The notes under the pieces: generated by a model
The model's input: only the letters and a program-made list of their open reading frames with translations
Database searches by the model: none
Told to the model about the DNA's origin: nothing
Shown here: positions 2-17,280 of the stretch, one piece after another
How positions within the stretch are numbered: the first letter of the stretch is position 1
Layout of the letters: every line of letters begins with the position of its first letter
Translations under genes and position numbers: made by a program
IMG/VR virus record: IMGVR_UViG_3300025848_000115
Location: 1-33,946 of that record
Reading direction: 5' to 3' (one strand)
DNA: 33,946 nucleotides
DNA from: a virus
Lineage: Duplodnaviria > Caudoviricetes

Positions 2-253
2 AAACTCATCGTTCGTGGTGCTTCAAAGAACGACGATTCCAATGATTACCTATTCAAAGGAATCAGCAACCGTTCATTCACCAGGACATTTGCTCTAAGC
101 GACGCAATCGAGATCAAGGGTGCAGAGATGCTTAACGGTATGCTGCAGATCATTCTCGAAAGAATCATTCCGGAGCATAAGAAACCGAAGAAGATTGAGA
201 TTAAAGAGCCTTCAGTTGTAGCCACTACAGATAAACAGCTACTAACGGAGTAA
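2..253 (+). CDS. hsp20: Small heat-shock protein Hsp20/IbpA-like, 3' part (truncated by window start)
   Basis: Manual translation of frame 2: KLIVRG...YLFKGISNRSFTRTFALSDAIEIKGAEMLNGMLQIILERIIPEHKKPKKIEI, the alpha-crystallin C-terminal signature; stop TAA 251-253. Confidence 0.92.
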   Translation, partial: KLIVRGASKNDDSNDYLFKGISNRSFTRTFALSDAIEIKGAEMLNGMLQIILERIIPEHKKPKKIEIKEPSVVATTDKQLLTE

Positions 254-8809: not shown

Positions 8810-8885
8810 TCCCCGGTAGTTCAGCTGGTAGAACGGTGGACTGTTAATCCATATGTCGTAGGTTCAAGTCCTACCCGGGGAGCCA
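8810..8885 (+). tRNA. tRNA-Asn (GTT)
   Basis: 76-nt cloverleaf: acceptor TCCCCGG/CCGGGGA, D-loop AGCTGGTA, anticodon loop CTGTTAA, T-loop TTCAAGT, encoded CCA. Confidence 0.97.
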
Positions 8886-12286: not shown

Positions 12287-12316
12287 GTTTACTTATTTTT
12301 ATTTCTTATTTATAAT
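12287..12316 (+). promoter_or_regulatory. Early promoter overlapping a divergent late promoter
   Basis: GTTTAC-N18-TATAAT on +; TATAAATA on - at 12307-12314. Confidence 0.7.
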
Positions 12317-12798: not shown

Positions 12799-13737
12799 AT
12801 GGCACATATGATTGAAACGATGGCTTACGCTGGCGAAACCCCTTGGCACGGTCTTGGCACGAAGGTTCCTGCTGACTTGTCACCCGACCAGATGCTTAAG
12901 AAAGCCGGCCTTGATTGGTCGGTACGTAAGGTCCCTGCCTTTGCAGAGGTTGCTGGCAAGAAGGTCGCGGTTGGTAAGTCCGCGCTTGTTCGTGACTCTG
13001 ACGACCGCATCCTTGATGTAGTGTCCGATGACTGGAACATCCTTCAGAATGAGAAGGCGTTCGAGTTCTTCCATGACTTCGTGGCTGCAGGCGACATGGA
13101 GATGCACACCGCTGGATCCCTTCGCGATGGTCAGCTGGTCTGGGCACTCGCCAAGGTGCACGATGGTTTCACCCTCTTTGAAGGTGATACGGTTGAGAGC
13201 TACCTGCTCTTCAGCAATCCCCATAAGTATGGCTGGTCCATCGATGTACGATTCACGCCTATCCGAGTAGTCTGCAACAACACTCTTACTCTTAGTCTTA
13301 ACACCGCGAGTAAGAACATGGTCAAGGTATCTCACCGCCGTGAGTTCGATGCCGACATGGTCAAGGAAACCCTTGGTGTTGCTAAGGAGAAGCTGGCCAA
13401 GTACAAGGAAATGGCCCAGTTCCTGGGTAGCAAGCGCTATACCGATAAGAGTCTGGTCGAGTACTTCAAGCGAGTCTTTCCTGTCGTCGGTGGTCCGGAC
13501 AAAAAGAAGGAGATGTCCATTTCTGCAAGCAAGGCACTTGATGTGATCAACACTCAGCCGGGTGCCAACTTTGCTGAGGGTAGTTACTGGAGCGCCTTCA
13601 ATACGGTGACGTTTATGATTGATCATAAGCTTGGCCGGAACCAAGACACTCGACTCTCCAATGCTTGGTTCGGTAATGGTAAGAAGATCAAGAACGACGC
13701 TCTTGAGACTGCTATCGAAATGGCACAGGCTGCATGA
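12799..13737 (+). CDS. DUF932 / TIGR03299-type phage-plasmid protein
   Basis: PWHGLG, AGLDW, LQN..AF, TAGSL, TPIRVVCNNTL and WSAFN motifs; own promoter at 12734-12763 and GGAG RBS. Confidence 0.9.
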   Translation: MAHMIETMAYAGETPWHGLGTKVPADLSPDQMLKKAGLDWSVRKVPAFAEVAGKKVAVGKSALVRDSDDRILDVVSDDWNILQNEKAFEFFHDFVAAGDMEMHTAGSLRDGQLVWALAKVHDGFTLFEGDTVESYLLFSNPHKYGWSIDVRFTPIRVVCNNTLTLSLNTASKNMVKVSHRREFDADMVKETLGVAKEKLAKYKEMAQFLGSKRYTDKSLVEYFKRVFPVVGGPDKKKEMSISASKALDVINTQPGANFAEGSYWSAFNTVTFMIDHKLGRNQDTRLSNAWFGNGKKIKNDALETAIEMAQAA

Positions 13738-13748
13738 ACCGGAGACGA

Positions 13749-13841
13749 ATGCTAGAGATAGCTGAGGGTATTGAGGCGGCGGGGATCATTGTCCTCGCCG
13801 TTCTCGCCGGGGCTGCACTAATTAAATACATACTGAGTTAA
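13749..13841 (+). CDS. Small single-TM peptide (30 aa)
   Basis: GGAG RBS; MLEIAEGIEAAGIIVLAVLAGAALIKYILS. Confidence 0.55.
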   Translation: MLEIAEGIEAAGIIVLAVLAGAALIKYILS

Positions 13842-13843
13842 CT

Positions 13844-14041
13844 ATGGATACAGATACACCGACTCTTATCAAAGCTCTTAGGATCTTAGTAGAAGACATT
13901 CAGTCAGACGACGGTGTAGCTAATGCATGCATTGCTGAAGCAGCCGATCGTCTGCAGTCTCTATACGATGAGAACATTGCATTGAGCCGTCTTGTAGATA
14001 AATATTTGTTTGAAAAAACTAGTCCTTCTGACGAGCCCTAG
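13844..14041 (+). CDS. Hypothetical protein; 3' end overlaps the hammerhead ribozyme
   Basis: ORF track; IQSDDGVANACIAEAADRL pattern seen in phage small proteins. Confidence 0.7.
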   Translation: MDTDTPTLIKALRILVEDIQSDDGVANACIAEAADRLQSLYDENIALSRLVDKYLFEKTSPSDEP

Positions 14042-14120
14042 TGGGCGAAACTATTGTTCCTTTGAGGTCTTGGTCGTTACCAGCGTAGCAAAAACGGCGT
14101 CAGGAACAATAGTCAAGGAC
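14022..14120 (+). ncRNA. Hammerhead ribozyme, type I
   Basis: Stem I GTCCTT(14022-27)/AAGGAC(14115-20); core CTGACGA(14028-34); stem II GCCC-TAGT-GGGC; GAAA(14047-50); stem III CTATTGTTCCT(14051-61)/AGGAACAATAG(14102-12); cleavage triplet GTC with cut after C14114. Confidence 0.92.
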
Positions 14121-14291
14121 ACGCACGAAGACCTTATGGTGTATTCGTGACGCGGGGAAATACCCAGGAATTACTTGTGATTGAAGTTGGAGTCCGGACT
14201 CTTCCCATAAAGCAAGTAATTGAACCATACCTATTTACTTTAATTCATATAATGAATAAAATGTATTCACATCATGAATGGAAAACAATCA

Positions 14292-16439
14292 ATGAGTGAC
14301 ACTACTATCTTGACAGAAGAAGAAATTGAGCGTATTGTCGAGAAGCATATTGAGGCTTTGGACCGCAGGCTCATGAATAATGACATGACACAACAAGAAT
14401 ATGAAGAAGCCGTTGTCATTGTTGACAAGTGGGCTTCGATTGCCATGAAGCAACGTAGGCATTTCACATGAACAAAATTGATCCACGAGATGAACTCACT
14501 CTATGGGTCGGTGCGACACGATATTACATGGGGCGCATGACCTACGCTGTGGCTAACTTCTGCAGTCTTTTGAATGATTCGTGGAATGAACTCGGCGAAA
14601 ACACCAAGGCAATCATCCAGCGCGACATTGAAGAGGAATTTGTGCGGGACGATGAGTCTCGCAGGCTGGGAGATTCTTTTCATCCACTCGGGCATGATTG
14701 TGACCGCAAGGCTTGGGAACATGTGAGGAAACTATGGAATACGATACCTTAATCCAGATTTTGGAACAAAGCGTTAAGCGTCACGGCGAGAAACCTCTGA
14801 CCAATAAATGGTTGCTGAATATCTTGCGAATGGCTGAAAATAAAGAAATTGAAGATGACCGCATTAGTTATTTTCATTCAGGAATTGATGACTGAATCTT
14901 GTAAAATTATTAGGAGGGCGACATGAGCGGCGGACACTTTAATTATAAACAATACGAAATCGGCATCATTGCTGACGAAATCGAACGGTACATTCTGAGG
15001 TGTGAAAACAAGGTTCCTAAGGATTGGGGCGAAGATGATGAGAACGGTAAATACGTTCCTTATGTTCACGAGGAACCAGAAGAAATCCTGAATAGAATGA
15101 AAGAAGGATTGATGTATCTGAGAAAGGCTTTCATTTTCGCTCACGAAATTGATTACTATCTTTCTTGCGATACTGGTCCTGAATCTTTTATTGAAAGATT
15201 AGAAGAAGAATTGTGTAAACTGGAGAATGGTGATGAACGAGCGAATGATTGAACTCATCGAACAAGCTGGTATGTATCGTGATAAATTTGGTATGTTCTT
15301 CAGCAAAGACAAACATAATGAAGATGGTGTAGACTTAGAAAAGTTTATTGAATTGCTCATGCGAGTGATATATGATGAAATAAAAGAAGAACTAATTCCA
15401 GATGAGTTAGTTGACATAGAACCCGATAGCTTTAATAGGCAATACCTTAAAGGTTGTAATGGCGGTATTACCGATGCATTATATATTGTCAAGAATTTTG
15501 GAGTAGACATTGATGAACTATGATGATCTTTTGTCGAAGTGCCAAGGTTTTCTATCTCCTGAAGATTATATGAGATTGTGTGGGCTTATCGTTCGTGAAA
15601 AAGAACGGAGTGAGCGGATTAAGGAATTGAATGAACTTGCACTTGAAGAGATGGTTGCGATAAATCAGAAACTTGGATTGTATGATGAGTATTGATTCAC
15701 CAGTTGATACGCTGCATCGGTGTATCGCTCACGCATGTTACAAGGGGTTTCCTGAAATTGAGTATGAAGATAGAGATTGGTCTATTACTGACAAGAAAGT
15801 TTTTGTTACAAAAACTCGACCGCACAGTGAACGAGATATCACGGTTCAAGCAATGTTTCCACAGACATGGAGCTCAACCGCACTCGGCTTTGGTGGTCTA
15901 GGTGGTCAGGCTATGACTTCCGCCTATACTGTGGTGATTGAATCGCAATATGCAGGATATCTAGTTTACTTTGGTGGCAGAATGGCTTATAATATCATAA
16001 GAGCGAATGACCAGTTTTTTAAGGACATTGCAGAGTGCAGAATGCACGAGGTCAAAGGAGCCAAGGAAAAATATGAACGATGAAGATTACGATGTAGTTA
16101 TCGATGTTCTTAAGAAACATATTAAGGTGTTGTCCGATATGGACCGAGGAGAATCATCATTCGGCATCATGACTCAGATTCGATTGGAACAGATTGGGCA
16201 AATGAACAAGGCTATTCGTATTTGGAAGAAGTATAAAGATGAAAACCTATAAACAGGAAATCATCGAGAATGCAATCTCAGGATTGAAGGATGGAGGATA
16301 TCCTTTTCCAGAATCTTTGATTCCTCTATTTACTTTAATCTATCAATCGGGGTATAATGAGTGTATCAGAAACATTAAAGAAAAGAATGTTTCCGGGTAT
16401 AGTGATATAATCAGTGATGGTGGAATGGACCCAAGATGA
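14292..16439 (+). CDS. Run of short coupled hypothetical early genes (14292-14471, 14468-14752, ~14734-14895, 14923-15252, ~15233-15523, 15510-15695, ~15682-16083, ~16073-16252, 16239-16439)
   Basis: Head-to-tail overlapping start/stop codons, with a promoter ATTTAC-N18-TAAAAT at 14233-14262; no recognisable domains. Confidence 0.65.
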
Positions 16440-16461: not shown

Positions 16462-16767
16462 ATGAAAATGGCTAATGTAATTATTGATGGTATTGAGTAC
16501 GCGCCGGTTGTTCGTGCTGCGGGCACGCGCGCGGTTGTGGTTGTGGATCGCGGTTGGATCTTTGCAGGCGATGTGACGCGCGAAGGTAATCGAATCTTCT
16601 TGGACAACGCGGTATGGGTTTTCAGGTGGGAGTCGATTGGATTCGACGGTGTGATCGCAAATCCAAAAGACGACAACGTAACTCTTCGGAAGATGAAGAA
16701 CAGGGTCGAGATTCCGGCTCAGTCTGAAATTTTCTCAGTGCCCGTGTCGGACGACTGGGGAGTGTGA
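16462..16767 (+). CDS. Small beta-barrel (Sm-like/DUF6948-like) protein
   Basis: VVVVDRGWIFAGD...LDNA..VFRW...G pattern; GAGGAG RBS; adjacent to Gly-rich repeat genes. Confidence 0.6.
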   Translation: MKMANVIIDGIEYAPVVRAAGTRAVVVVDRGWIFAGDVTREGNRIFLDNAVWVFRWESIGFDGVIANPKDDNVTLRKMKNRVEIPAQSEIFSVPVSDDWGV

Positions 16768-17026
16768 TGAACTTCCTACCGGTAGGAAACGGTTTCGGCT
16801 CCGGCTCCAACTCCAGCTACGGCTACGGCGATGGCTACGGCGATGGCTATGGCTATGGCTACAGCTACGGCTCCGGCTACGGCTCCGGCGATTGCTACAT
16901 CTCCGGCTCCGGCGATGGCTCCGGCTGGCCGGGTCCCAAGGCTCCGGATACGGCGATGGCTATGGCTACGGCTACGGCTTCGGCTTCGGATACAGAACGC
17001 CGGAGATTTTGAGGAGAAGAGAATGA
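16764..17026 (+). pseudogene. Gly/Tyr/Asp/Ser-rich repeat gene, copy 1 (apparently frameshifted)
   Basis: Starts MNFLPVGNGFG like copy 2. The homologous tail (GYRTPEILRRRE*) lies in another frame after a non-repeat insert near 16925-16940. Confidence 0.6.
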
Positions 17027-17280
17027 GACCTGAGGAAAGCGTGATGAACTTCCTACCGGTAGGAAACGGTTTCGGCTACAACTACAACTCCGGCTACGGC
17101 TCCGGCGATGGCTACGGCGATGGCTACGGCGATGGCTACGGCGATGGCTACGGCGATGGCTACGGCGATTGCTACCTCTCCGGCTCCGGATACGGCGATG
17201 GCTATGGCTACGGCTCCGACTCCGACTCCGGCTCCGGATACGGATACGGAACACCAGAGATTTTGAGGAGGAAAGAATGA
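17023..17280 (+). CDS. Gly/Tyr/Asp-rich repeat protein, copy 2
   Basis: GAGGAG RBS; (MRPEESV)MNFLPVGNGFG-(GYGD)n-GTPEILRRKE; 12-nt GGCGATGGCTAC tandem repeats. Confidence 0.7.
   Translation: MRPEESVMNFLPVGNGFGYNYNSGYGSGDGYGDGYGDGYGDGYGDGYGDCYLSGSGYGDGYGYGSDSDSGSGYGYGTPEILRRKE

Follow-up and report, generated by a model that had tools for sequence, protein, structure and literature searches.

A type I hammerhead motif capped by a recurrent 44-nt RNA module precedes a conserved structured RNA in a phage genome

The window analysed here is the whole of a 33,946-base virus record (Caudoviricetes, IMGVR_UViG_3300025848_000115). A family B DNA polymerase, RecA and a DnaB-like helicase are encoded close together in it, and this cluster of replication genes points to a large T4-like phage. 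At least half of the window's words are contained in 12 of the 24 listed public runs, all of them freshwater, aquatic or drinking-water metagenomes. The sole ARAGORN find in the window is a single tRNA-Asn(GTT) gene at 8810-8885, with no tmRNA. Elsewhere, positions 16764-17280 hold two tandem small ORFs of Gly-Tyr-Gly-Asp/Ser repeats with the same ends. Between 24000 and 28630 the longest-ORF calls change strand and AT-rich promoter-like sites are found on both strands (24283 on the plus strand; 24277, 26900 and 28231 on the minus strand).

The locus of interest lies on the plus strand, 3' of a DUF932 gene (12799-13737; PF06067, PHROG 1221) and two small ORFs, and between two promoter-like sites, each of which is a consensus match only. 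The first of them (12288-12316, plus strand) probably drives a transcript containing both DUF932 and a hammerhead ribozyme motif; three such consensus matches were found against 4.1 expected by chance. The second (14234-14262, plus strand) begins 5 nt past the tail of the RNA described below and is replaced in a related locus (L124) and in one contig of run X10, which places the 3' border of a conserved cassette there. In L124, a homologue of the Gly-Tyr-Gly-Asp/Ser-repeat ORFs is encoded upstream of the cassette. Past 14228 the window shows no terminator-like site that would set the 3' end of the downstream RNA.

The hammerhead motif at 14022-14120 (plus strand) is real and complete, and belongs to type I. 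Its open stem I has 6 bp (14022-14027/14115-14120), its stem II has 4 bp (14035-14038/14043-14046) closed by the loop UAGU (14039-14042), and its closed stem III has 11 bp (14051-14061/14102-14112), or 12 when A14050-U14113 is counted. The core strands CUGACGA (14028-14034) and GAAA (14047-14050) follow the consensus C3-U4-G5-A6-N7-G8-A9 with G12-A13-A14-A15 given in the methods of PMC3088659, and their flanks are free of mispairs. The cleavage triplet GUC occupies 14112-14114, with U16-H17 and the A15.1-U16.1 pair (A14050-U14113) in place, so that the cut is predicted between C14114 and A14115. Loop III holds a 40-nt insert (14062-14101) with a helix of its own (14073-14078/14093-14098). The first-pass annotation had described the core, the three stems and this extra helix, and every element was found at its coordinates; its reading of the core as the end of a protein, ...SPSDEP, with the TAG stop (14039-14041) of the 65-aa ORF 13844-14041 (plus strand) in loop II, was likewise correct.

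Several lines of evidence distinguish this motif from a chance match. The core motif by itself occurs at chance level in the window (seven matches against 3.9 expected), whereas a loose descriptor of the complete hammerhead arises in only one of 200 window shuffles. When 14016-14124 is folded, the hammerhead is both the MFE and the centroid structure (z = -3.82; none of 200 shuffles as good). In a context of 340-500 nt, stem pair probabilities are mostly 0.8-1.0, falling to 0.45-0.67 for the pairs adjoining the core and at the tip of stem III. Among relatives, the sequences of stems I, II and III vary yet remain paired, with compensatory changes in all three. Comparison with the Rfam Hammerhead_1 model (RF00163) gives a type I match, though at 27.5 bits (E 7e-5 on a 291-nt stretch) it stays under the gathering score of 34; relatives without the insert score 31.3-33.9 bits, and the whole family thus falls just below the cut-off. 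A weak Rfam type III match at 14017-14056 (E 0.41) was rejected since it is without stem I. RAGATH-1 hammerheads are recognised by a 5' hairpin with an A-rich linker, a very short stem II and a match to their Rfam model (RF03152); the window has no such match, and its stem II has 4 bp. Just upstream of stem I, ACUA (14018-14021, plus strand) could pair with the loop II UAGU as a stem I-loop II tertiary contact. The full 4-bp complementarity is found only in the window and L123 and is missing from L125; what all nine members of subgroup A, the window's own, retain is the A at 14021 and a U as the last nucleotide of loop II.

The insert-bearing form is not a misassembly, as contigs of three DNA runs (X1, X8 and X10) cover it: a contig of X1 spans 13700-14155 with zero differences from the window, and overlapping contigs of X8 and X10 cover the insert junctions. 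Run X1, which may come from the sample that yielded the window, contains the insert-less form as well. In the four runs filed as RNA, 14115-14228 is covered by no contig. Contigs of X17 and X20 that end at 14027-14029 were rejected as evidence of cleavage because they are read-length pieces whose ends fall short of the predicted cut by about 85 nt, and because an X6 contig, from DNA, ends nearby too, at 14038. The depth of 702 on the insert in X18 was also discounted, since many carriers contribute to it and the run is probably DNA.

The hammerhead belongs to a family with a conserved 3' neighbour. A scan for the stem II core returned 113 loci, mostly type I or type III hammerheads just before ribosome-binding sites. 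Three of these loci have the same stem I and the same ~120 nt downstream as the window, with a short stem III and unrelated upstream genes, so the cassette 14020-14232 is kept behind unrelated genes. A second scan, for the hammerhead 3' half plus a loop motif of the downstream RNA, returned 42 loci. CUGANGA is present in 24 of them, L371 included, although it was absent from the pattern; the other 18, tRNA genes or chance matches, were dropped. Pooling all searches gave 22 distinct hammerhead-plus-RNA units, a count that does not establish that the RNA always follows a hammerhead, as the hammerhead was partly built into the search pattern. One locus identical to the window over 2,800 nt (L280) was left out as an independent member. 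Apart from two compact outliers (L362 and L371), the units fall into two subgroups, one sharing the window's stem I and the other having a different one. Seven of the 22 have at least five tRNAs within 1.5 kb, that is, they sit in tRNA arrays. No partner protein is common to 24 family loci, where the biggest cluster of likely genes spans three.

Two other groups of hammerheads were met in these scans. Eight loci (L014, L024, L035, L042, L049, L071, L083 and L103) form a separate type I subfamily in which the 5' leader is identical and stem III carries structured inserts of two kinds, 35-50 nt long, with which the leader may pair; other natural stem III expansions therefore exist. In nine further loci (L011, L020, L030, L041, L076, L087 and L094-L096), two to three hammerheads occur per 2 kb, each just before a ribosome-binding site, which is a known arrangement.

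The sequence 3' of the predicted cut, 14115-14228 (plus strand), is a conserved structured RNA of ~114 nt according to its conservation, fold and covariation, and would be the 5'-OH cleavage product of the hammerhead. It consists of a hairpin (14122-14149) with an invariant loop (14131-14143), a small hairpin (14154-14165), AGG (14166-14168), a long arm (14169-14221) and an RAACCRY tail (14222-14228). Over 17 aligned rows the predicted 3' product measures 111-183 nt and keeps a general layout of a hairpin with a nearly invariant 13-nt loop, a variable part, AGG, a long arm and the RAACCRY tail. Loop nucleotides 14136-14140 pair with 14224-14228 of the tail in a long-range pseudoknot supported by covariation. 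Its three inner pairs are invariant, while its outer pair is G-C in eight rows, A-U in six, G-U in one and unpaired in two, one of which (L341) is misaligned and pairs with its true tail. In all, 94% of the cells are paired, against 31-48% in slid controls and none of 500 shuffles as good. In addition, double changes occur in 14 of 32 predicted pairs among five subgroup-A sequences. A scan for the stem of the long arm (111 loci) yielded only near-identical cassettes plus chance inverted repeats.

The tip of the long arm is a perfect 12-nt palindrome (14190-14201, central hexamer 14193-14198), a predicted kissing loop. By eye, a Watson-Crick palindromic hexamer is present in the terminal arm of 10 of the 17 rows, in eight different sequences; four other rows are palindromic with G-U, the palindrome shrinks to 4 nt in L238 and is missing from L350 and L373. 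Automated tests were weaker (9/17, or 7/17 against 11% in shuffles). The downstream RNA may dimerise by kissing of these loops; palindromic and kissing contacts are described as common motifs of multimerising RNAs in the review PMC12990946.

A compact core without the inserted arms follows two other kinds of hammerhead, in L371 (1262-1287), where the ribozyme is RAGATH-1, and in L362 (661-689); it lies about 17 nt after the cleavage site, and an H-type pseudoknot is one way to draw it. Some tRNA genes are similar at positions 3-14, the acceptor 5' strand and D stem, to the downstream RNA's invariant loop (L238 and L373; L351 and L364), a likeness that may hint at an origin from a tRNA 5' half. 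The tRNA array at L238:560-1720 also contains several 100-350-nt non-tRNA units with a repeated short AU-rich spacer between them, which are probably further uncatalogued stable RNAs.

The insert in stem III is also part of a recurrent RNA. Run sequences matching the window show 14060-14103 elsewhere, flanked by differing inverted repeats, and covariation together with copies in other contexts defines these positions (plus strand) as a conserved 44-nt module. Its parts are the 6-bp helix, a 2-bp mini-hairpin (14083-14084/14088-14089), an A-rich linker and a predicted 3-bp pseudoknot (14066-14068/14079-14081), with stem III as the closing stem. Two viral scans for the module gave 28 and 57 loci, of which six and eight were chance matches; the extraction pattern missed L247, leaving 76 loci with 45 distinct copies. 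The closing stem is usually ~11 bp and covaries strongly: 95.7% of its cells are paired, and the structure as a whole has 82 double-change cells (none of 500 shuffles as good; slid controls 27-53%). Each of the inner 11 pairs forms in 40-45 of the 45 copies, and the twelfth in 23. The 6-bp helix is paired in all 45 copies, with wobble changes and one double change. The pseudoknot is likewise compatible with all 45, with two wobble changes and no double change, and fits better than a nested alternative (broken or gapped in 5 of 135 cells). Since the inner core hardly varies, and the search patterns themselves fixed part of it, covariation lends little support to the inner pairs. Pairs were not counted on one MAFFT alignment (A6) in which stem III was misaligned.

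The contexts of the 45 copies are diverse. Permuted-tmRNA spacers account for 25 (23 called by ARAGORN, two by their ends), sites at or near tRNAs for 14 (11 adjoining a tRNA, three within 600 nt of one), stem III of a hammerhead for three and other settings for three. In 22 of the 25 spacers the distance from CCA to the core is 12 nt. In those 25 copies the module caps the spacer hairpin, within what is known for two-piece permuted tmRNA as the intervening sequence (RF04321; Nawrocki et al. 2025, PMC11915505). Passages of that paper on the spacer describe it as sequence that is removed and sometimes carries a tRNA or repeat, and mention no conserved motif. The tmRNA types suggest a freshwater proteobacterial host. 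Unlike those genomes, the window has no tmRNA, and the spacer module alone is held in common. Among 185,579 bacterial and archaeal genomes, searched for an exact 20-mer only, one match was obtained, inside a permuted tmRNA on a 3-kb MAG contig. Cultured phages and plasmids gave no match for 13750-14300, the insert returning only noise at E of at least 1. At gathering score, Rfam models for tRNA and tmRNA span or flank the module at 18 module loci, and no module family was matched. Comparison of the window (E<=1), the 291-nt stretch (E<=10) and 14 family loci (E<=0.5) with Rfam gave no match to either the module or the downstream RNA. Rfam lent no support either to likenesses with preQ1-I, SAM-II, guanidine-III, twister, pistol, hatchet, ToxI and put RNA, which were dropped. 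At L250:1340-1570, a divergent copy has a promoter-like site plus terminator-like hairpin on one side and a start codon on the other, a riboswitch-like position.

Fusion of module and hammerhead has been found three times. A first scan for fusions gave one real locus out of 14; the metagenome scan gave three loci, namely the window's twin, L279 and L281. L279 belongs to the same subgroup as the window (84 of 114 nt identical in the 3' product), while L281 is the same unit as L238, of the other subgroup and in a tRNA array. The three fusions have three different 12-bp stem III sequences, and the other 19 units are without the module, including the nearest relatives of the window (109-112 of 114 nt identical in the 3' product), from which we infer that the module was gained or lost more than once. 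The module is present once in the window and once in each of five records of 118-214 kb, which rejects a selfish repeat. It was found elsewhere in none of five carriers of insert-less hammerheads, and the loop motif of the downstream RNA in none of five module carriers; the two RNAs do not travel together.

Putting these features together, we favour with moderate confidence a constitutive hammerhead that heads a ~215-nt cassette and frees and likely stabilises the 5' end of the ~114-nt RNA, with the module as independently spreading cargo. The hammerhead would fold during transcription and cut after C14114. The module-capped stem III, bearing a cyclic phosphate, would then form the end of the upstream mRNA, and the structured RNA would be freed with a 5'-OH end. 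Given the biology of RNase E and RppH, such an end should protect the product from decay that depends on a 5' monophosphate. In tRNA arrays, the hammerhead would serve the downstream RNA as RNase P serves the neighbouring tRNAs. Stem III likely serves the module only as its closing helix, and the module behaves as a functional domain that requires a closing stem of roughly one helical turn and is tolerated beside processing sites, presumably a protein- or ligand-binding RNA in processed precursors of stable RNAs (tmRNA spacer, tRNA trailer or leader, ribozyme arm). Its sequence is most likely conserved because it binds a conserved host factor or metabolite; the module is less likely to control cleavage, given that stem III does not depend on it for stability. 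A bolder version, to which we give only slight credence, would have a portable 44-nt domain that plugs into any ~11-12-bp stem near an RNA-processing site in large aquatic phages and binds a host factor or metabolite. Its fusion to the hammerhead would then be a natural ribozyme-aptamer chimera controlling the release of a second new class of RNA, pseudoknotted and dimerising by kissing loops, with a compact core that may be catalytic.

Other explanations account for part of this evidence. The hammerhead could be an ordinary intercistronic mRNA-processing element, with the downstream structure acting as a 5' stabiliser or leader of the next genes and not as a free RNA. Such hammerheads are common between phage genes, as in most of the 113 loci above and in the relevant parts of PMC3088659, and the lack of a terminator after 14228, together with the closeness of the RNA's end to a start codon in L345, L354, L360 and L279, fits this explanation. 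It sits poorly, however, with the seven of 22 units that are items of tRNA arrays, where the unit often precedes a U-rich spacer and then a tRNA, and with the new promoter-like site at 14234 in the window. The covarying pseudoknot and palindromic loop, moreover, exceed the needs of a stabiliser hairpin. We regard it as unlikely.

A natural aptazyme, in which the module senses a ligand or protein and tunes the processing of its scaffold (hammerhead, tmRNA or tRNA), is also unlikely. The module does always lie beside a processing site at a fixed spacing (the 12 nt from CCA to core in 22 of 25 spacers), stem III is 12 bp in all three fusions against 4-9 bp in insert-less members, and many invariant unpaired nucleotides with a predicted compact pseudoknot would suit a sensor. 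In contrast, allosteric hammerheads have a weak communication stem, and here the inner pairs of an 11-12-bp stem III keep a probability near 1 whatever the insert does; furthermore, the closest relatives lack the module and both forms are present in run X1.

The first-pass annotation had proposed that self-cleavage processes the DUF932 operon transcript and may be gated by a ribosome terminating on the catalytic core. The processing half stands as a prediction, with the cut at C14114 falling at the end of a transcription unit that contains DUF932, but the gating half is unsupported as a conserved mechanism. In this genome, the cassette supplies the last residues and TAG of ORF 13844-14041, which belongs to a small family of phage proteins. 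In L341 and L343, DUF932 lies immediately 5' of the cassette and its stop codon directly abuts stem I, and ATG ORFs of at least 40 aa stop inside or just past the ribozyme in three of 21 members (the window, L350 and L362), so ribosomes can touch some copies. The overlap is nevertheless missing in the closest relatives: the four closest cassettes follow unrelated sequence, and the nearest upstream ORF of at least 40 aa stops before the core by 15 nt in L123, 54 nt in L125, 20 nt in L375 (a TTG ORF) and 206 nt in L124. A 39-aa GTG ORF in L124 does end at the same TAG, as any frame-2 read-through must. Nine homologues of the window's ORF were considered, of which one (L009) is cut at its start; the eight translated have other C-termini and no hammerhead core within 600 nt, and the window's ...EKTSPSDEP* is therefore a read-through into the cassette. 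Loop II is a stop codon in only some members, and array members have no upstream protein gene. Contact of ribosomes with the ribozyme is thus, to judge from these sequences, not a family trait. In this genome, termination of a ribosome in loop II might delay folding but could do no more, and gating is very unlikely.

The HDV consensus comprises a nested double pseudoknot, P3/L3 and a conserved catalytic C in J4/2. The locus has no Rfam match to HDV-like or theta ribozymes, a module too small for P3 and no conserved C before the tail. It is highly improbable that the pseudoknotted core downstream works in tandem with the hammerhead as another, new self-cleaving ribozyme or as an element protecting the end: the 13 nearly invariant loop nucleotides, the AGG and RAACC anchors, the compact form behind two other hammerhead kinds (L371 and L362) and the enrichment of ribozymes near other ribozymes, as stated in PMC10085705, speak for it, but no Rfam ribozyme matches, the strands follow an order unlike that of the HDV fold and the position before the tail lacks a conserved cytosine.

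The hammerhead and its predicted product can be compared with several known systems. Phage and bacterial type I hammerheads (RF00163; Perreault et al. 2011, PMC3088659) share the core, the three stems, the open stem I, GUC and the position at gene borders; passages of that work propose that they process polycistronic phage transcripts and report cleavage in vitro for hammerheads flanking prophage genes. Unlike the hammerheads covered in those passages, the one in the window has its stem III capped by the 44-nt module and a conserved structured RNA as its predicted 3' product. The family touches RAGATH-1 through L371, a RAGATH-1 hammerhead (80.8 bits) followed by the compact downstream core. 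Stem II of the window, however, has 4 bp, and the 77 positions of the Rfam model do not extend to the downstream core. Self-cleaving motifs also occur in phage stable-RNA transcripts as theta (HDV-like) ribozymes at the 3' ends of tRNAs (Kienbeck et al. 2024, PMC10879173), which are proposed to replace a protein RNase and to trim the tRNA 3' trailer; they are of a different class, and the hammerhead in the window would instead make the 5' end of a non-tRNA RNA. Structured RNAs that self-assemble by loop-loop or palindromic pairing, such as GOLLD, ROOL, OLE and phi29 pRNA (treated in sections of PMC12990946), resemble the downstream RNA in that respect, but it is much smaller (110-180 nt), has no Rfam match and its dimerisation is a prediction.

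An exact-sequence search of full-text literature gave no match, and topic searches retrieved no description of either RNA. Supplements 3, 5 and 6 (motifs) and 4 (sample numbers) of Fremin et al. 2023 (PMC10690425) contain no match, and either RNA may be among the 8,495 unnamed candidates of that study. What is new here is the fusion of two RNAs uncatalogued in Rfam to a hammerhead of known type. The purpose of phage hammerheads is mostly obscure beyond the general idea of mRNA processing, and here one would have an identifiable product, predicted to be a conserved RNA whose structure covaries and whose gene often sits, much as a tRNA gene would, within a tRNA array. In addition, the discarded spacer of a two-piece tmRNA can hold a conserved, single-copy, portable RNA domain, and the same domain has also entered a ribozyme, with three different stems.
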